DNA of 36,189 nt from a virus. The stretch covers positions 1 to 36,189 of the IMG/VR virus record IMGVR_UViG_3300045988_129036; one strand, 5' to 3'. Both the position numbers and the translations under genes were made by a program. This document shows positions 1,623-36,189 of the stretch, piece after piece (within the stretch, counting starts at the first letter, position 1; every line of letters begins with the position of its first letter). The notes below the pieces were generated by a model. The model was given only the letters and a program-made list of their open reading frames with translations, was not told the DNA's origin and ran no database searches.

Positions 1623-1687
1623 GTTCTGGCTTGCGCCGGGCTTCTAAGTAGGTTTATACTATAAATGTAAGGCAATGAAGACCTTAC
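1623..1687 (+). promoter_or_regulatory. Early promoter cassette copy 1: -35 TTGCGC (about 1631-1636), -10 TATACT (1655-1660), leader hairpin GTAAGG/CCTTAC (1667-1687).
   Basis: Near-identical to the sequences at 3711, 6050, 7903 and 35866 (inverted). Sigma70-like spacing of 18 nt. Confidence 0.7.
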
Positions 1688-3710: not shown

Positions 3711-3789
3711 CCTGGCTTGTTTTTCTCTCACAGATAGGTTTATACTATAAATGTAAGGAAGAACAAAGACACCAAGTCGGAAACCTTAC
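3711..3789 (+). promoter_or_regulatory. Early promoter cassette copy 2: CTGGCTTG -35, -10 TATACT (3740-3745), leader hairpin GTAAGG(3752)-25 nt loop-CCTTAC(3789).
   Basis: Same core AGGTTTATACTATAAATGTAAGG as the other copies. Confidence 0.7.
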
Positions 3790-3816
3790 AGACCCAAACC
3801 GAAAGGACACAGAATC

Positions 3817-4211: not shown

Positions 4212-4255
4212 CCCGCCGGGCGGCGGTACCTCCGAATACCCGCCGCCGCCCGGCT
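4212..4255 (+). terminator. GC hairpin GCCGGGCGGCGG ... CCGCCGCCCGGC with no U tract.
   Basis: 12-bp stem 25 nt after the stop of the acidic gene. Confidence 0.4.
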
Positions 4256-6049: not shown

Positions 6050-6117
6050 TTGATTCTGGCTTGCTTTCCACCCCACACAAGGTTTATACTATAAATGTAA
6101 GGCAATGAAGACCTTAT
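6050..6117 (+). promoter_or_regulatory. Early promoter cassette copy 3: A/T-rich UP-like region 6036-6055, -35 TTGCTT (6061-6066), -10 TATACT (6085-6090), leader hairpin 6097-6117.
   Basis: 55 bp identical to copy 4. Confidence 0.75.
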
Positions 6118-6144
6118 AAAAGACCCAAACCGAAAGGAACCCCA

Positions 6145-6324
6145 ATGCTGGAGTACTACGAAATTCAGGAATACGTTACCGAGGTTGCAGAAGGTAACTA
6201 CCCGTTCCGAGTAATCGACGCAGTAACCGCCGACATTTTCGAGCGAGGTATAGCCGTCGAGATGGAAGACCTCAAGGCATACCCGCGAACCCGTGAACTC
6301 CTCAAGATTCACAACGCGGCCTAA
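6145..6324 (+). CDS. 59-aa acidic protein, paralogue of 8010..8189. Absent from the ORF track because it is under 60 aa.
   Basis: ATG 6145 follows ccgaaaggaacccca. Starts MLEYYEIQEY, against MLAQYEILES in the paralogue. Confidence 0.6.
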   Translation: MLEYYEIQEYVTEVAEGNYPFRVIDAVTADIFERGIAVEMEDLKAYPRTRELLKIHNAA

Positions 6325-6339
6325 CAATCAACCAACTAA

Positions 6340-6363
6340 GCCCCGCCCCTCACCGGGCGGGGC
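6340..6363 (+). terminator. GC hairpin GCCCCGCCC-ctcacc-GGGCGGGGC with no U tract.
   Basis: Lies 16 nt after the stop of the 59-aa gene. Confidence 0.4.
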
Positions 6364-7902: not shown

Positions 7903-7983
7903 TGGTTTCTGGCTTGCTTTCCACCCCACACAAGGTTTATACTATAAATGTAAGGAAAACAAAGGAACCACCGGAAACCTTAC
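7903..7983 (+). promoter_or_regulatory. Early promoter cassette copy 4: -35 TTGCTT (7914-7919), -10 TATACT (7938-7943), leader hairpin 7950-7983.
   Basis: Identical core to copy 3, with an A/T-rich upstream region. Confidence 0.75.
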
Positions 7984-8009
7984 AAACCCAAACCGAAAGG
8001 AGCCCGCAA

Positions 8010-8189
8010 ATGCTGGCACAGTACGAAATCCTCGAATCCCTCACCACCGCAGCACACGGCGAAATCGAACCCGCCGTTTTGGAAGCCGCGGCAACCGAAA
8101 TCTGGGAAAACAACGACTTCGAGACTATGGCCGACTTCGAGGCCTACACCGAAACCTGGGAAATCGTCGCAAAGCACGACGCTAAGTAA
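8010..8189 (+). CDS. 59-aa very acidic protein (paralogue of 6145..6324). Candidate anti-defence protein.
   Basis: ATG 8010 follows ccgaaaggagcc. About 15 D/E against 2 K. The ORF track gives a longer 7902 start, which is unlikely because it spans the promoter. Confidence 0.65.
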   Translation: MLAQYEILESLTTAAHGEIEPAVLEAAATEIWENNDFETMADFEAYTETWEIVAKHDAK

Positions 8190-8205: not shown

Positions 8206-8234
8206 GCCCCGCCCGGCTAACCACCGGGCGGGGC
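8206..8234 (+). terminator. GC hairpin GCCCCGCCCGG-ctaacca-CCGGGCGGGGC with no U tract.
   Basis: 11-bp stem 17 nt after the stop. Confidence 0.45.
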
Positions 8235-12326: not shown

Positions 12327-12496
12327 ACTAGAAACCGAACAAGAACACCCCAATAGAACACACATGCCAAAAGGGGTAGGGGCGGTAAAAAAATAGAACA
12401 CACCTTCGACACCCAAACCTGGGCGCAGTGTCAATCTCCCCCCGCTGGAATTTACCGGGCATCGCGCGCGCGATTATACAACATGTAGAGGTCTTG

Positions 12497-12874
12497 ATGA
12501 ATATTTGGCGTATCGGCATGGTGAAGACCGTGCAAGAATCTATCACCGCCGCCGTGAACGACGGCATTATCAAAAATGCGGATAGCGCTAAATGTGCGCT
12601 CGCTTTGAAGTATGCCGCCGCGCTGGATGAAGCCTACGATTTGTACAATAGCGACGGCGGCGACTTTGACCTATTGCTAAAGACTCTGAATATTGCAGGC
12701 CCTAACCTCAATAAGGCTTTGGACTCGCTGGGTTGCGCCCCGTATTCGCGTAAGGACATGCAGGCGCAGGCGACCGAGACCGACCGACTGGCTGAGCTTG
12801 TCGAGCAGCGCGGCAAGGACGACCCCGCGCTAGTTGCCCGTATCATGGCAGAGATTGAAGGCACGGATGAGTAA
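12497..12874 (+). CDS. Putative terminase small subunit.
   Basis: Position between HNH and TerL. ATG 12497 follows agagg. About 125 aa and helical. The ORF track offers an alternative GTG at 12428. Confidence 0.4.
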   Translation: MNIWRIGMVKTVQESITAAVNDGIIKNADSAKCALALKYAAALDEAYDLYNSDGGDFDLLLKTLNIAGPNLNKALDSLGCAPYSRKDMQAQATETDRLAELVEQRGKDDPALVARIMAEIEGTDE

Positions 12875-14462
12875 AGACTATTCCAAGTTGAAGGGTAAGG
12901 CGGTGCCCCGGCTGTGGACGCGGCCGCTTCGTGAGCTTACCCCGCTAACTACGTTCGGTTTCGAGGCTATCCGCTTTGCAGAGAATGATTTAGGGTTGCA
13001 GTTGCACCCGTGGCAGAAATGGTTTCTACTCCATTCGCTAGAGCTGGAGCCGGGCTATACGACGGGTGACGATTACCCTAAGCTACGATATAAAACCGTG
13101 GTGCTTCTTGTGTCTCGACAGAACGGAAAGTCGTTCATTCTTAGCGCCCGGCTTCTCTGGCGTATGTTCCTATGGAAGCAACGCCCCGGTCTGGACGCGC
13201 CGCTAATCCTGGGCACGGCGCATAAGCTGTCTCTAGCTGAGGAGATTCTAGACGCGGCGCACCGTACCGTGTCCCTGTCTGAGATTCACGAGCGCCTGGT
13301 TCAGAAATCCAATGTGAACGGCAACAAGTTTTTCAAGCTAGATAATGGCGCGCGCTGGAAGTGCGAGGCGGCATCAGATGACGGCGGGCGCGGTCTGTCG
13401 GTAACTGACCTAGCGTTTGATGAGCTTCGTCAGCAAAAGGACTGGAGCGCATGGGCGGCTATGACCAATACGACTAACGCGATTTGGTCTAGCCAGGTTA
13501 TCGCCGTGTCTAATGCTGGCGAGGCTAAAAGCGAGGTGTTGCGCTCGCTTAGGTCTAAAGCTCTTGAGGAGATAGAGGCGCGGGCGGCGGCAGAGAAACG
13601 CGGTGAAGAGTACGCGCCGGTTGATGCCTCACTGGGACTCTTCGAGTGGAGCGCGCCGGATGATTGCGACATTTGGGATACCGCCGGGTGGTGCCAGGCT
13701 AACCCGTCCCTGGGTTACCCTAACGCGATTACGGGTGACATGCTCGCATCGAAGGCGGCGCTAGTCGGTGAACCCGGCGCGGGTCTACCGGAACACAAAT
13801 TCAGGACTGAGAATCTTTGCCAGTGGGTGAACGTCACGGCGGACTCGCTGTTCAGCTCCGAGGAATTGGAAGCGTGTCTAGACCCTGAATCTATGATCGC
13901 ACCGGATAGCCCGGTGTATCTTTCTGTGGACGTTTCGCGTGACCGCAAGATGACAAGCCTATCAATCGCTGGTTTTCGGGACGACGGCAAACCACACGTT
14001 GAGTTCGTGACTCAACGAGCCTTTACCGAGTGGGTACCGGAATTTTTGGCTAATGGGCTTGCGTTCAAGCCCGCCGCCGTGATTATGCAGGGGCGCGGCT
14101 GTGCTGCATCGTCGCTAATCCCGTTCATTGAACAGGCTGGTACGCCGGTTGTTCGGTGTGAGGGCGGCGACCTCCCCAATGCCTACGGCTTGTTCTATGA
14201 CCGGGTGATGGAGAAGTCGGTTTCTTGGATTGAGCAGGAAACCCTAATAGGCGCGCTCTCAGAGATTCGCACCAAATCGACCGGCGACGCATTTTTGTTC
14301 AATCGCGAAAAATCCCCGGTGGACATTGCCCCGGCGTGCGCCGCCGCTTTCGCCCTATGGGGTTTGCTGAACACGGTTGCAGGGGCGAAAAAAGAAAGTG
14401 CGTATAATGAAGCTGAAATGTGGTATAAGCAAGAAGAAGATGAAGGGGGTAAATGGTGGTAG
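12867..14462 (+). CDS. Terminase large subunit.
   Basis: ATG 12867 follows gaagg. Walker A-like VSRQNGKS. Size and position fit. Confidence 0.85.
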   Translation: MSKDYSKLKGKAVPRLWTRPLRELTPLTTFGFEAIRFAENDLGLQLHPWQKWFLLHSLELEPGYTTGDDYPKLRYKTVVLLVSRQNGKSFILSARLLWRMFLWKQRPGLDAPLILGTAHKLSLAEEILDAAHRTVSLSEIHERLVQKSNVNGNKFFKLDNGARWKCEAASDDGGRGLSVTDLAFDELRQQKDWSAWAAMTNTTNAIWSSQVIAVSNAGEAKSEVLRSLRSKALEEIEARAAAEKRGEEYAPVDASLGLFEWSAPDDCDIWDTAGWCQANPSLGYPNAITGDMLASKAALVGEPGAGLPEHKFRTENLCQWVNVTADSLFSSEELEACLDPESMIAPDSPVYLSVDVSRDRKMTSLSIAGFRDDGKPHVEFVTQRAFTEWVPEFLANGLAFKPAAVIMQGRGCAASSLIPFIEQAGTPVVRCEGGDLPNAYGLFYDRVMEKSVSWIEQETLIGALSEIRTKSTGDAFLFNREKSPVDIAPACAAAFALWGLLNTVAGAKKESAYNEAEMWYKQEEDEGGKWW

Positions 14463-28885: not shown

Positions 28886-30319
28886 ATGGCACGATATGGC
28901 GATATTGTCCTAGTGACGCTGGACGAGAATAACGAGCTGGAAGGCGACGCACTAAAGCACGTCGAGCGCGTAGCAGCAGAGGCCGCCGCTACCGCCGCCG
29001 CGTCTAAGCTGGACGCTACCGCGTTTGCGGATTATGTGGCGCAGGCGCAGGCGCGCGGGGTGACCGCTCCGGTGGAAAATCGTAGCGCGTCCCTGAACGC
29101 GGTGACTGAATTTAATGCAGATCCGACCGGTTCGGTGGATTCTACGGCGGCGATTAATCGCGCGATTCAGCAGGCGGCAGAGCGCGGCGGCGGTACGGTG
29201 TTCCTACCGGCTGGCACCTATAAGGTGAGCTACCCGTTTATTGAGCTTCTGGGCTCGGTGCATTTGCAGGGCGCGGGCCGTGAGTCCACCACTCTGTTTG
29301 TGAATACCGCTGTTCCGGTTCCGGTGAAGACGGCGGTTATCCACGCGGGCAATTATGACGAGCCGCGCCGTGGCACCGGAAATATCCTCATGGGTGTTAG
29401 CGACCTGTTCATCAAGTCTGAGTATCCGCTCCGTGAGCACACTAGCAATATTCCCGCTAATGTCGGTGGCATTGTTTTTCACACTGAGCTAGGGGTGAAT
29501 CCGCATGAACCGGACGGGGCGCACCGCATCGAGAACGTCATTATCTGGGACATGGCCTATGGCATCGCCTTGTTTGGGCTGGATGACCAAGCGTGCCAGG
29601 TGCGCAACGTGCGTGTGCGCCGTACCCGTGAATTTGGTGTGTGTGTCGGTAAGCCTTTGGAGCACCCGCGCGCTAAGGTGGACGGCAAGCGCGAGACCGG
29701 CGCGGGCGACAATATCCTAGACGCGGTGGACGTGTCCGGCGCGAATATTAGCGGCGAGGGGTTCGCCGGTATCGAGTGCTATACGACTAATACTACGTTT
29801 ACCGCGTGCAAGTCTTGGTACAACCGCCGTAGCAGTAGCGGCGTAGAGGGTGCTAAGGGTTCCATCTGGGATACCAAGGGCACCAATGCAGAGCACCCGC
29901 ACGCCCCTATCAAGAACGGCGCGGGCTTCTATGTCCACGGTGGACGCAATATTTTCACCGGCTGTACGGCGCAGGAGAACGGCGGCCACGGTTTCGCCCT
30001 GGTTGGTACCGCTAATCAGGTTGTCGGTTGCCGCGCCGCGTCGAGCTCATGGTGGGATACGTCCGGTAAGGCACCCAATAGCGCAGCTGATTTTTTCGTC
30101 GCAAACTGGGCATGGGGGCTAGCCATGACTGGCAACATTGCACAGTCCGAATACGGCGAGAAGACCGGCGCGCGCTACGGCTATTTCTTCGAGTCATGGG
30201 GACATGACATTATCGCCCGTGGTAATGCCGCTATTGCACAGCCTACCGCGCTAAAGGCGGGTAGTATGGGTAAGAACGTGATTATTGAAGTCAATCTGGA
30301 AACCGTGAAGGGGGCATAA
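28886..30319 (+). CDS. Tailspike / receptor-binding protein with pectate-lyase-like right-handed beta-helix (polysaccharide depolymerase).
   Basis: NRAIQQAAERGGGTVFLPAGTYKVSYPF is the canonical pectate_lyase_3 N-terminal signature. Repeated G..N.. beta-helix rungs. Confidence 0.65.
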   Translation: MARYGDIVLVTLDENNELEGDALKHVERVAAEAAATAAASKLDATAFADYVAQAQARGVTAPVENRSASLNAVTEFNADPTGSVDSTAAINRAIQQAAERGGGTVFLPAGTYKVSYPFIELLGSVHLQGAGRESTTLFVNTAVPVPVKTAVIHAGNYDEPRRGTGNILMGVSDLFIKSEYPLREHTSNIPANVGGIVFHTELGVNPHEPDGAHRIENVIIWDMAYGIALFGLDDQACQVRNVRVRRTREFGVCVGKPLEHPRAKVDGKRETGAGDNILDAVDVSGANISGEGFAGIECYTTNTTFTACKSWYNRRSSSGVEGAKGSIWDTKGTNAEHPHAPIKNGAGFYVHGGRNIFTGCTAQENGGHGFALVGTANQVVGCRAASSSWWDTSGKAPNSAADFFVANWAWGLAMTGNIAQSEYGEKTGARYGYFFESWGHDIIARGNAAIAQPTALKAGSMGKNVIIEVNLETVKGA

Positions 30320-30838: not shown

Positions 30839-31159
30839 ATGGCACAGGCTGAAATCCGTGGCTTGCTAGAGGATGGGCGCGCCCCGTCCACACTGAAAGC
30901 TGAAATTCAGGAGATGATTACCGCCGCCGCCGGTGGTGGTGTCACCACTGAGGCAGTCGCTAAGGCTCTAGGCGTGGCTATCGTGCGCAGCACTACCCGC
31001 CCACCCGCTACCATGCACGGCGTACCGACTATCTGGGTAAACCCCGCGCTGGAAGGTGCGCTACAGCCGGTACCGACGTTCACACTCAAGGAGAACGGCG
31101 CTATTCTGGAGATTGAAACGCCTAACCCGGCGGGTGGTGCAATGAATGGCAACCTATGA
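30839..31159 (+). CDS. Hypothetical protein.
   Basis: SD ggaaaggaagg. 106 aa. Confidence 0.45.
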   Translation: MAQAEIRGLLEDGRAPSTLKAEIQEMITAAAGGGVTTEAVAKALGVAIVRSTTRPPATMHGVPTIWVNPALEGALQPVPTFTLKENGAILEIETPNPAGGAMNGNL

Positions 31160-32171
31160 GCTAGTCACTAGGGCGGGCGTTGAAGCTGAGGTAGCTAGGC
31201 AGACGGCACGATTTGAAACGCGAGAAAAGAACTTCGGGTTTAAACCGGGTGAGCATTATTATTCCCCGGTAACTTATACGTGGCCTGACTTTTATAATGG
31301 TGCTAATTCTAAGTGGGCTAAATTCCTTGAATTTGGCAACACTTTGGGTATTGTCATTCTGAACAGGTCTAGTGGTGATTGGCTTTCTAAGCGCCCTGAT
31401 GTTGATTTTGCGACTCAGGGTTCTATGGCTCTTAGCGCGGGTGCCCGGCGCGTGTCGTTCTATATTAAGACGCGACACGGCGCTATGTTCGAGGGTATGC
31501 CTGTTTCTTACAGGGATAAGATCGCGACGAATCTAAACGTTGATTTGTCGGCTATTATGCCTTTTACGGAAGATTTTATTATCGAGTCCGCACGGGCGGT
31601 TAAGAATGATTATCCTGGTATTCAGGTTAATATTTTTCTTGATGAAACTAACCCGTGGATTGAAATGGATTTGCAGAATAAAATCATTGAAGCTTACGTA
31701 AGGCTTTATAATCGGCTAAAGCGTGAGCTTGGTAATGATTGTTTGATTATTATCAATCCTGGTTCTAATACGCCGGCTTCTATGATGGCCGCGTGTGACG
31801 TGGTTCTGTCCTATGAATCGAACGCGGCGAAATATCTAGACCCTGGCACTCAGTGGATTCACCCTGAGCATTACAAGGGCTTCCCGTCGTGGCGTTTCTG
31901 GCATGTGATTCACGGTGCGACCCCTGAGAACATTGATGCCGTGTTCGCTAAGGCCGATAGCCTGGGTATTGGTCATCTTTACGTTACAGACCGCACATTC
32001 AAGGTTGGCGGCGGCTCTGAGGACGAACCGGAAGAAAACCCCTACGATAAGCCGCCCTCTCAGTGGGTAGAGAACCGCGTGAAGGCTTGGATTGGTGGCA
32101 CGTTGCCGTTTGAGCAGCGCCTATCAGCTTTGGAGGCAAAAATTAAGGAATTGGAGGCAAAGCATGTCTAA
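31146..32171 (+). CDS. Low-GC gene. Putative TIM-barrel glycoside-hydrolase-like (spherulin-4-like) tail-associated enzyme with a C-terminal coiled coil.
   Basis: Composition about 40-45% GC with T-ending codons against >60% in the flanks. The spherulin-4/glycosidase-like call rests on weak recalled resemblance and is not verified. Confidence 0.35.
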   Translation: MATYELVTRAGVEAEVARQTARFETREKNFGFKPGEHYYSPVTYTWPDFYNGANSKWAKFLEFGNTLGIVILNRSSGDWLSKRPDVDFATQGSMALSAGARRVSFYIKTRHGAMFEGMPVSYRDKIATNLNVDLSAIMPFTEDFIIESARAVKNDYPGIQVNIFLDETNPWIEMDLQNKIIEAYVRLYNRLKRELGNDCLIIINPGSNTPASMMAACDVVLSYESNAAKYLDPGTQWIHPEHYKGFPSWRFWHVIHGATPENIDAVFAKADSLGIGHLYVTDRTFKVGGGSEDEPEENPYDKPPSQWVENRVKAWIGGTLPFEQRLSALEAKIKELEAKHV

Positions 32172-32772: not shown

Positions 32773-33255
32773 ATGCCGCCTGATTTTTGGGCACATTTCA
32801 CAGAGAGTTTCTGGGTGATTCTGCAAGCTGGAACCGCCGCTACCGCCGCTACAGTAGCTAAGCGGTTCAAAGACTTTCAATCAGCCAAGAAACGAGAGAT
32901 AGCCGAGCGCCGCGCACAAGATGCCGTAATCCTAGCCAAGCTGGAAGCTCTCGCCAATCAGCAGAGCGACGTGAAGGCGCAGGTTAAAAATAGCCACGGG
33001 ACTAATCTACGCCATGATCTAGACGCGGCCATCAGAAACTCGAAAGAGGCGCGCGATAACTCGACGCAGGCGCTAAAGATTGTCGGGCAGATTAGGGACT
33101 CTTTGGAGTCGCTAACCGGTGATTTTCGAGAGTCAAAGCGTGAACACATTGATTTTCGCGAGCGCCATAATAGGAGTGCTGAGGATATTCAGGACTTGAA
33201 TAAGAGAGTGAACGCTCTTTTTTCAACCGTAAAGAAGGAGATTACCCATGAGTAA
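32773..33255 (+). CDS. Membrane-anchored coiled-coil protein (possible lysis accessory).
   Basis: N-terminal hydrophobic segment, then a long charged helix. ATGA overlap with the endolysin. Confidence 0.45.
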   Translation: MPPDFWAHFTESFWVILQAGTAATAATVAKRFKDFQSAKKREIAERRAQDAVILAKLEALANQQSDVKAQVKNSHGTNLRHDLDAAIRNSKEARDNSTQALKIVGQIRDSLESLTGDFRESKREHIDFRERHNRSAEDIQDLNKRVNALFSTVKKEITHE

Positions 33256-33841
33256 TTACGTGGACATTACCCACTGGAACGCCGCATCTTTCACGGCGGC
33301 AAGCCGCACCATTGACGATATCGACACTATCGTCATTCACCATTGGGGCGTTGACGGTCAGCGCTTTGATGACGTATGCCGATTCTTCCAGAACGGCCCC
33401 GGCACTTCCGCGCATTATGTTGTGGAAGCGGGTAAGTGTGCGCAGCTGGTCGAGCTTAAGGATATCGCGTGGCACGCTGGTGACTGGAACGCGAACGCCC
33501 GTTCTATTGGTATTGAGTGCCGCCCTGAGATGAGTGATGCGGACTTCGAGACCCTGGCTCACGTCATTGCTGATATTGAGACCTACTACAACAAGAGCTT
33601 CTACATTCACGGCCATAAGGATTATTTCAATACCGCGTGCCCTGGTCGTTATTACGATCAGCTGGATCACCTCATTGACCGTGTGAATGAGATTAAGGCT
33701 GGCATTGATAACGCCCCGGCTCCGCTGTCTCATGATGAGGTGGCCGAGAAGCGCGCCGCCTGGGAAAAGCTCATGAAGGAGCTGGAAGAGGCTAAGGCCG
33801 CCGGTGAAGAAGTCGGTAAGTGCCTGGCACAGGTAAACTAG
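33248..33841 (+). CDS. Endolysin, N-acetylmuramoyl-L-alanine amidase (amidase_2/PGRP fold).
   Basis: IVIHHWG...AHYVV...WHAGDWNANARSIGIE...HGHKDY...CPG gives the Zn ligands and catalytic pattern. SD aaggag. Confidence 0.85.
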   Translation: MSNYVDITHWNAASFTAASRTIDDIDTIVIHHWGVDGQRFDDVCRFFQNGPGTSAHYVVEAGKCAQLVELKDIAWHAGDWNANARSIGIECRPEMSDADFETLAHVIADIETYYNKSFYIHGHKDYFNTACPGRYYDQLDHLIDRVNEIKAGIDNAPAPLSHDEVAEKRAAWEKLMKELEEAKAAGEEVGKCLAQVN

Positions 33842-35846: not shown

Positions 35847-35865
35847 CGGCTGGTTTTCCTTTCGA

Positions 35866-35905
35866 CATTTACACTATAAACCTAGATGCAAGGTGGGCAC
35901 AAGGT
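35866..35905 (-). promoter_or_regulatory. Fifth, inverted copy of the early promoter: CTTGTGC-16-AGGTTTATAGTGTAAATG. Drives the leftward RusA operon.
   Basis: The reverse complement aligns position-for-position with copies 1-4 but lacks the GTAAGG leader hairpin. Confidence 0.65.
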
Positions 35906-36029
35906 TAAACACTGTGAGTATAGTCACTCTTACAGAGTGAAGGGGCGCATCTCATATATGCTATAATTGACAGTATCGAGAGATAACTAAGCGGTTTTGT
36001 CCTCTTTTGTGAAGCTTTCGGGTTGGGTT

Positions 36030-36123: not shown

Positions 36124-36189
36124 TAGGTACATTTTGCAGGGGGGGGTAGGTACATTTTGCAGGGGGGGGTAGGTACATTTTGCAGGGGG
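36124..36189. repeat. Right-terminal tandem repeat, 23-bp unit x 2.9. The last 55 bp are identical to window positions 1-55.
   Basis: Direct reading. Confidence 0.9.

Follow-up and report, generated by a model that had tools for sequence, protein, structure and literature searches.

In the T4-type phages RB49 and phi1, small ORFans at points of gene insertion or replacement are preceded by PeSL elements, intergenic repeats of about 100 nt that combine an A/T-rich tract, a sigma-70-like early promoter, a stem-loop and a Shine-Dalgarno (SD) sequence and that act as homology patches for modular shuffling (PMC2839356). A cassette of similar build occurs four times in IMG/VR record IMGVR_UViG_3300045988_129036 (36,189 nt; this whole stretch of DNA is called the window hereafter), the genome of an uncultivated siphophage whose host is probably Rothia. 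Between promoter and SD, each copy carries a hairpin with the stem GTAAGG/CCTTAC, or a one-base variant of it, at the predicted start of transcription. PeSL cassettes are the closest described system in architecture and evolution, and the window cassettes resemble them in composition and in their placement at mosaic junctions. However, PeSL stem-loops are G/C-rich, occupy varied positions, mostly in the -35/-10 interval or over the -10, and are terminators or attenuators of upstream transcription, whereas the stem-loop described here is A/U-rich rather than a stable G/C-rich terminator stem, starts in every case at the predicted +1, lacks a U tract and comes from a siphophage with a probable actinobacterial host.

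A second point of comparison is provided by the leaders of ompA and papA in Escherichia coli and of aprE in Bacillus subtilis. Stem-loops at the 5' terminus are established stabilisers of mRNA, and RppH needs unpaired 5' nucleotides (review PMC3997798, which cites Emory 1992, Bouvet 1992 and Hambraeus 2002 on stabilising 5' stem-loops). The window element likewise has a short hairpin at the extreme 5' end, here a predicted one, followed by an accessible strong ribosome-binding site (RBS), and the mechanism to be expected would be the same, namely the lack of a single-stranded 5' end for pyrophosphohydrolase, RNase E and RNase J (PMC3997798). Unlike those leaders, the hairpin is part of a cassette present four times per genome, with a fixed stem sequence and an interchangeable interior, and its stems are weaker (6-7 bp, A/U-rich); the likeness is drawn from a sequence-predicted 5' end.

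Inverted repeats next to phage genes are also known from Cluster K mycobacteriophages, where non-structural genes follow a conserved extended RBS block, the SAS (the 13-bp GGGATAGGAGCCC, 3-8 bp before the start codon), and a subset has the ESAS just upstream, an imperfect inverted repeat (17 bp) with a variable spacer of 4-13 bp (PMC3203893). Lambda nut (boxB) and HK022 put are promoter-proximal RNA hairpins of early operons with stable hairpins downstream, as is the arrangement described here; boxB needs a conserved loop, boxA and the N protein, and put is a two-stem RNA of about 70 nt.

Architecture of the window cassettes

The cassette covers about 100 nt and consists of an A/T tract, a -35 box TTGCnn, an 18-bp spacer, a -10 box, ATAAAT, the hairpin, a linker and the SD. 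The -35 is held within GGCTTGC, the spacer ends in AGGTT, and the -10 hexamer TATACT is followed by an invariant ATAAAT, the 5' arm of the hairpin beginning at base 7 after the -10. Behind the hairpin come a variable A/C-rich linker of 1-8 nt, the block CCCAAACCGAAAGGA, which holds the SD GAAAGGA, a further 5-9 nt and the ATG. Within the window CCCAAACCGAAAGGA has four exact copies, all of them in cassettes, and the 24-nt block TAGGTTTATACTATAAATGTAAGG is likewise present four times, at 1649, 3735, 6079 and 7932.

All four cassettes lie on the + strand. The promoter of cassette 1 (1631-1666) has its -35 TTGCGC at 1631-1636 and, after the 18-bp spacer, its -10 TATACT at 1655-1660 and ATAAAT at 1661-1666; the short hairpin GTAAGG-CAATGAAGA-CCTTAC (1667-1687, class A; -5.5 kcal/mol, z -4.0) starts at the predicted +1, G1667, and CCCAAACCGAAAGGA (1694-1708, SD at 1702-1708) precedes the ATG of a 136-aa gene at 1716. 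In cassette 2, the promoter (3717-3752; -35 TTGTTT at 3717-3722, 18-bp spacer, -10 TATACT at 3741-3746, ATAAAT) leads into a longer hairpin (3753-3789, class B) with the inner helix GAC-ACCAA-GTC inside the outer GTAAGG/CCTTAC, followed by CCCAAACCGAAAGGA at 3793-3807 and a 123-aa gene from ATG 3817. Cassette 3 returns to class A: its promoter at 6061-6096 (-35 TTGCTT at 6061-6066, 18-bp spacer, -10 TATACT at 6085-6090, ATAAAT) is followed by GTAAGG-CAATGAAGA-CCTTAT at 6097-6117 (-4.2 kcal/mol, with a terminal G.U pair), CCCAAACCGAAAGGA at 6124-6138 and a 59-aa gene from ATG 6145. The promoter of cassette 4 (7914-7949; -35 TTGCTT at 7914-7919, 18-bp spacer, -10 TATACT at 7938-7943, ATAAAT) precedes a long hairpin of class C (7950-7983; outer GTAAGG/CCTTAC, inner helix GG-AACCA-CC), CCCAAACCGAAAGGA at 7987-8001 and a paralog of the 59-aa gene from ATG 8011.

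The hairpin at the predicted transcription start, proposed for four cassettes in the initial annotation of the window, is real: the pattern GTAAGG-N(4-34)-CCTTAC occurs exactly three times, always on the + strand (1667-1687, 3753-3789 and 7950-7983), where shuffled sequences predict 0.04 matches and none of 100 shuffles reached three, and the fourth copy is the CCTTAT variant. The claim that all four copies end in CCTTAC thus stands for cassettes 1, 2 and 4 and fails for cassette 3, whose stem-foot pair is G.U in RNA and a mismatch in DNA. Cassettes 1 and 3 do share a loop, which is the 9-mer CAATGAAGA; the 10-mer originally given took in the first C of the 3' arm. The long loops of cassettes 2 and 4, described as common to both, are related and not identical (25 nt, AAGAACAAAGACACCAAGTCGGAAA, versus 22 nt, AAAACAAAGGAACCACCGGAAA); each has its own inner helix of 2-3 bp (GAC/GUC and GG/CC), and the two form separate classes in related phages.

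Promoter and stem conservation in related phages

Relatives were collected with an exact-pattern scan of IMG/VR for the hairpin, with a second scan that used the promoter TATAAATG and the RBS block as its sole anchors and was hence blind to the stem, and further through a RecT-based search and homologs of the 123-aa protein. These gave twelve related phage contigs from metagenomes, which together with the window make 13 genomes or contigs with 43 distinct cassettes and 29 distinct hairpins. Three further contigs (L017, L019 and L048) were rejected as low-GC chance matches, and a scan of a genome collection (596 Gb) with the promoter and RBS anchors returned no prophage, its 62 matches in unrelated taxa being attributed to chance.

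The -10 reads TATACT in 23 of the 43 cassettes, TACACT in 8, TATAGT in 5 and TACAAT in 2, with other forms in the remainder; TAnnnT is kept in 41, changes are confined to the 'n' positions, and the -35 TTGCnn stays 18 bp upstream. Such variation is the signature of a real actinobacterial sigma-A -10 box, and we take the block to be a promoter because its -10 varies only as TAnnnT with the -35 at this fixed distance. The geometry fits the sigma-A consensus of Corynebacterium glutamicum, with an 18-bp spacer and TTGnnn (PMC3890552). The element lies between a credible sigma-A-type promoter and an SD, in partial support of the initial annotation, and it would be transcribed if the promoter assignment is right. 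A generic sigma-70 scan misses the cassettes, the -35 TTGCnn scoring only 3 of 6. Alternative -10 boxes at ATAAAT or TATAAA were rejected: they do not read TAnnnT and lie 22-24 bp from the -35, and TATACT varies exactly at the 'n' positions. Also rejected was a 13-bp palindromic operator over the -10 region (TTTATA-s-TATAAA), a palindrome that the frequent TACACT and TACAAT variants break.

The stem is kept across these 43 cassettes while its interior is replaced wholesale. The 5' arm GTAAGG is present in 42 of them and the 3' arm CCTTAC in 30, the others having G.U variants (CCTTAT, GTCTTAC; 4 cassettes), a one-base deletion that leaves a bulged A (CCTAC; 6) or one mismatch (3). Outer-stem cells are paired in 93.9% of cases in the short-class alignment and in 98.7% in the long-class alignment; shifting the partner by 1-3 columns lowers the share to 17-51%. 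It is thus pairing rather than loop sequence that is kept, with 94-99% of outer-stem cells paired around an interior replaced among at least four classes. The arm sequence remains invariant across genomes whose neighbouring proteins are only 68-74% identical; even the siphophage copy of the 123-aa gene that has diverged furthest (68%) is accompanied by the same stem. The hairpin was never found away from a promoter cassette.

Interior classes and cassette shuffling

Between the arms lie 5-25 nt of interior sequence, of which there are at least four classes, unrelated to each other or rearranged, so that the two loop classes of the initial annotation hold for the window alone. Class A has short loops of 5-9 nt (AAAGA, AAAGGAA, AACGAAG, CAATGAAGA), whereas the long classes contain inner helices, GAC-N5-GTC in B, GG/GGG-N5-CC/CCC in C and GAGG-N4-CCTC in D. 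Double changes that compensate each other occur at two of the three pairs of the inner helix, whose loop sequence varies freely (ACCAA, AGGGA, AGGAA, ATCGA). A spacing of 5-25 nt between the arms would be incompatible with a dimeric operator on double-stranded DNA and natural for a hairpin. A mini open reading frame (ORF) starting at the ATG in the loop CAATGAAGA was ruled out, relatives reading CAACGAAGA or CAAAGAG.

Loop class does not follow the downstream gene: the gene beginning MELTAK is preceded by A, B, C or D, that beginning MLEYYE by A or D, and MLA.. by A, C or D. Nor does it follow the promoter spacer or the linker behind the stem. This independence from gene and spacer implies that the cassettes recombine. 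Between genomes, alternative first genes stand behind them (MSTTYR, MTNQYK, MGRTRF, MTPRPG and others), and the cassettes lie at junctions where small ORFs are inserted, deleted or replaced. Within the window, a 49-nt promoter block of cassette 3 (6054-6102) is identical to that of cassette 4 (7907-7955), yet the interiors of the two differ; orthologous cassettes in other genomes differ across this same block. In one relative, L013 (contig 3300011982_000399), the first gene, MFNLTANPAH, is cut to about 10 codons and runs directly into the GC hairpin that follows it, which looks like a deletion via the microhomology CCCCGCC common to the 5' end of the gene and the hairpin arm.

These patterns raise the possibility that the cassette is primarily a recombination or linker module, its arms kept uniform as a homology patch for RecT and the YqaJ exonuclease and by gene conversion, with a hairpin that is incidental or acts at the DNA level as a single-stranded hairpin or cruciform. 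The many combinations of loop class, spacer, linker and gene, the different ORFans behind cassettes of different genomes, the RecT and YqaJ genes in the same operons, the PeSL precedent (PMC2839356), the identical blocks of cassettes 3 and 4, which are evidence of within-genome gene conversion between cassettes, and the lack of covariation in the outer stem would all be consistent with such a module. However, homology patches need no self-complementarity, and the 3' arm is a conserved island of 6 nt amid variable segments and the exact complement of the 5' arm; in addition, the inner helices change by compensation, and an unrelated promoter family in another phage (described below) has hairpins at the same place. 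We therefore consider it somewhat unlikely that recombination is the whole explanation, although a role as homology patch is compatible with an RNA function and does not exclude it.

A parallel in a putative jumbo phage

Homologs of the 123-aa gene with 72-76% identity are found on ORFan-rich contigs of about 280-290 kb (L091, L095, L097-L100), and homologs of the window endolysin also occur on contigs of about 290 kb. Judging from these shared genes, the contigs probably represent a Rothia jumbo phage with the same host as the window phage. It does not have the cassette, and the more distant 123-aa homologs in which outer-stem covariation was sought, all those at 76% identity or less, proved to belong to it. 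Its promoter family is a different one, with TTGCA, a spacer and the extended -10 TGTGGTAnnAT; its genes are individually promoted, and it uses U-tract terminators.

In 15 of 22 jumbo phage promoters, a stem of 6 bp or more begins no further than 14 nt behind the -10, compared with 24% at random positions (P = 2e-5), and the stem sequences are unrelated. Orthologous jumbo phage leaders differ by compensation or wobble: GAGGGG/CCCCTC in one corresponds to GAGAG/CTCTC in the other, GGTTAAG/CTTAGCC to GGCTAGG/CTTAGCC, and GATGTAGCG/TGTTACATC to GGTGTAGCG/CGTTACATT. The jumbo phage leaders are split 12 to 9 in sense versus antisense fold stability (P = 0.09). A hairpin at the predicted start of the transcript thus recurs in phages of this host group as a design selected for its structure, and these parallel hairpins in an unrelated promoter family support reading the window element as an RNA structure. 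One of the jumbo contigs, L091, also encodes a single TnpB/Cas12f-like protein (12442-14010).

A proposed protective leader in a portable cassette

From the repetition, position and conservation of the hairpin we infer a 5'-terminal leader stem-loop that protects early mRNAs and forms part of a PeSL-like portable promoter cassette, a reading to which we give an even chance. In this model, the host sigma-A RNA polymerase would start at the G of GTAAGG, and the nascent leader would fold at once in vivo into a stem that pairs the 5'-triphosphate end. The stem would block 5'-end-dependent decay by an RppH-type (Nudix) pyrophosphohydrolase, the 5' sensor of RNase E and the 5' exonuclease RNase J. 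Early messages would become long-lived, the first small gene, closed at its 3' side by a GC hairpin, gaining most, and the unstructured A/C-rich linker would keep the strong SD (GAAAGGA) open; in the predicted fold the SD is indeed unpaired and the rest of the leader A/C-rich and unstructured. The cassette would thus be a portable high-expression module whose invariant blocks double as short stretches of homology for the exchange of cassettes, loop inserts and downstream ORFs between phages. The shuffled interiors and variable ORFs fit this model because the phage RecT and YqaJ would need only short homology.

Several observations weigh against a protective leader. All four window hairpins adopt the proposed fold, though with little stability (-4.2 to -5.9 kcal/mol; z-scores from -1.1 to -4.0), and the two long-loop copies, with z only -1.1 and -1.6, are inconspicuous by energy alone. 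Family stems are short and A/U-rich (6-7 bp with 3 G-C pairs, -4.2 to -9.4 kcal/mol), and in 13 of the 43 cassettes a bulge, mismatch or wobble weakens them further; the reality of the hairpins rests on repetition and conservation, not on energy. Folding shows no strand asymmetry: in the window family the sense strand gives the stabler fold for 7 hairpins and the antisense strand for 21, the difference averaging 0.1 kcal/mol, so that this test provides no RNA-specific signal. G.U variants of the sense strand (4 cassettes) do not clearly outnumber the A.C mismatches (2), which are G.U pairs on the antisense strand. Neither alignment contains a compensatory change in the outer stem, no pair being altered on both sides, and this invariance could reflect sequence-specific recognition or concerted evolution instead of pairing. 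With an outer stem that does not covary, an unclear G.U bias and a null strand test, the evidence for RNA structure is not airtight. Moreover, actinobacterial transcripts start 3-11 nt after the -10 (PMC3890552), and a start inside the 5' arm, which would lie within this range of the predicted promoter, would leave no hairpin to form; that the stem stabilises the message is purely conjectural.

The absence of covariation, the weak folds and the null strand test would also be expected if the element had no function, the arms being conserved as recent mutual copies and their complementarity a frozen accident. This is very unlikely, since the arms stay while the sequence between and after them has diverged or been replaced many times, the inner helices have been rebuilt with different sequences, and hairpins at the corresponding place in an unrelated promoter family show significant enrichment.

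If the proposed protective role is true, the cassette would be a compact modular expression unit for an actinobacterial host, in which an UP-like tract and a promoter are followed by a hairpin that protects the 5' end, a leader free of structure and a strong SD; to our knowledge, almost no genetic tools exist for Rothia. Actinobacteriophages would join T4-type coliphages as phages in which a promoter with a stem-loop serves as a joint for shuffling, and the ESAS-type inverted repeats of mycobacteriophages, so far unexplained, would gain a hypothesis open to testing. Stabilisation by 5' stem-loops is textbook knowledge, and no general principle is altered. The element is new within known kinds, a real and conserved 5' leader stem-loop in a mobile cassette of uncharacterised, probable Rothia phages, and is not surprising.

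GC hairpins, the leftward promoter and a possible regulatory role

A stable GC hairpin closes each first gene on the + strand, and we therefore regard the first message as bracketed by 5' and 3' hairpins. These lie at 2151-2174 (GCCCCGCCC-loop-GGGCGGGGC) behind the first gene of cassette 1, at 4215-4254 (13 bp) behind that of cassette 2, and at 6340-6363 and 8206-8234 behind those of cassettes 3 and 4. The stem GCCCCGCCC/GGGCGGGGC is common to three of the four, the segments that contain them fold at -23 to -35 kcal/mol, and none of the four is followed by a U tract on the coding strand. The first one resembles a canonical terminator on the opposite strand. They could be attenuators or 3' protecting structures.

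A fifth, leftward promoter of the same family (35857-35878, - strand) lacks the hairpin, as the initial annotation had stated; the distinct regulation suggested there is a conjecture from this absence. Its -10 TATAGT (35878-35873) is followed by GTAAAT and GTCGAAAGGA, the GT running directly into the SD GAAAGGA (35863-35857); the predicted +1 is G 35866, and a RusA gene lies downstream. The same short leader without a hairpin was found in six of six genomes of relatives. On the + strand at 35959-35967, an extended -10-like sequence, TGCTATAAT, faces the repeat arrays and the replication gene and is kept as TGnTAnnnT in relatives; it probably represents a sixth promoter that differs in type from the other five.

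The arms are invariant although the neighbouring protein has diverged to 68-74%, which is more than pairing alone needs, very stable GC hairpins follow all four first genes, and the leftward promoter does without the element. Such features would be consistent with a sequence-specific operator, in which a factor binds the stem, as RNA or DNA, together with ATAAAT and either shuts off the four operons later or modifies RNA polymerase to pass the GC hairpins in the manner of nut or put. However, the arms stand anywhere from 5 to 25 nt apart and a single genome contains different loops, which argues against both a dimeric DNA operator and a boxB-type recognition of the loop. The GC hairpins without + strand U tracts are not canonical terminators, whereas the jumbo phage does use U-tract terminators, and no candidate RNA-binding or antiterminator protein was recognised by Pfam or PHROGs. 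We found no boxA and no N-like gene, and the hairpin, at 21-37 nt and with only 21 nt in class A, is far smaller than put RNA, so that the element has the hallmarks neither of nut/boxB nor of put antitermination RNAs. Rfam gave no match at the gathering score for the whole window and none at E<=5 for the cassettes. A sequence-specific operator therefore seems unlikely.

A more specific version holds that the invariant GUAAGG/CCUUAC stem is an RNA operator of all rightward early operons, read by a phage or host factor, which couples initiation to events at the U-less GC hairpins (anti-pausing, anti-attenuation or timed shut-off) while the interior tunes each operon; we regard this as speculative and improbable. 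The earlier suggestion of a conserved loop as a binding site for a protein or small RNA is not supported, as loops are the least conserved part of the element, vary within one genome and are shuffled among orthologous positions. The hairpin is not an intrinsic terminator either: downstream of the stem the + strand reads GAAAGACCC or AGACCC, with no U tract, and a loose terminator scan flags only the - strand copy of 1667-1687, owing to the adjoining A/T-rich promoter.

Comparison with RBS-associated repeats

As in Cluster K, where the left repeat of the ESAS is better conserved than the right, the window element is an inverted repeat with a variable spacer directly upstream of a conserved extended RBS (PMC3203893), and its left arm, too, is the better conserved. 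The hairpin, or SD-like AAGG(A) in its arm or loops, might thus recruit or position the 30S subunit beside CCCAAACCGAAAGGA, as a translation-initiation aid like SAS/ESAS or STAB-SD. Several loops read AAAGGAA or AAAGGAGG, and the 5' arm with its next bases, GTAAGGAAAAC, resembles the true SD region GTCGAAAGGAAAACC of the leftward leader. Nevertheless, SD-like loops are not universal, the class A loop of the window being CAATGAAGA; the distance from hairpin to SD varies between 8 and 15 nt; the SD-like 5' arm is sequestered in the stem; and this SD also serves the leftward promoter and internal genes, where there is no hairpin. The elements also differ in sequence and dimensions, with CCCAAACCGAAAGGA in place of the SAS, inverted repeats of 6-7 bp and spacers of 5-25 nt, and the ESAS is not tied to promoters, leaving a resemblance that is architectural only. 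The function of the ESAS is itself still unknown (PMC12699233). A translational role appears quite unlikely.

Genome, host and operon setting

The window, about 36 kb long and 55% G+C, is a complete phage genome assembled as a circle. The assembly is judged circular or overlapping because the same 23-bp tandem repeat, GGTAGGTACATTTTGCAGGGGGG, is found at both ends (repeats span 1-55, 70-108 and 36124-36189). An adjoining 14-bp repeat array (TAAATCGAAGAATC, 2.8 copies) and the 23-bp array lie just upstream of a replication-initiator gene (184-1146; HTH_36, phrog_270), and the two arrays look like origin iterons.

A siphovirus tail module is present. Comparison with GenBank phages by megablast and blastn against a phage collection found no DNA relatives, the only match of the window being its terminase, 40% identical to terminases of Arthrobacter phages. 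Named relatives of the endolysin (33248-33841, Amidase_2) come only from Rothia mucilaginosa (63% identity) and an uncultured Rothia (57%), which is why the host is probably Rothia (Micrococcaceae, Actinomycetota). Rothia is an abundant commensal of the mouth and airway, and our literature search found hardly anything on its phages.

The four cassettes stand at the heads of early operons. That of cassette 1 encodes the 136-aa protein of unknown function, a membrane protein and the YqaJ exonuclease; that of cassette 2 the 123-aa protein, also of unknown function, RecT and SSB; and those of cassettes 3 and 4 begin with paralogous 59-aa acidic proteins, followed by further unknowns. The paralogs (6145-6324, MLEYYEIQEY..., and 8011-8189, MLAQYEILES...) are each the first gene after their cassette, have no family match and may be host-takeover or anti-defence proteins. 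Pfam and PHROGs recognised no RNA-binding protein, antiterminator, repressor, integrase or RNA polymerase among the early genes, and no tRNA genes were found in the window. In the late region, a pectate-lyase-like beta-helix protein (28886-30319) and a Spherulin4-like protein of glycoside-hydrolase type (31146-32171) are probably capsule or exopolysaccharide depolymerases, which would fit a mucoid host.

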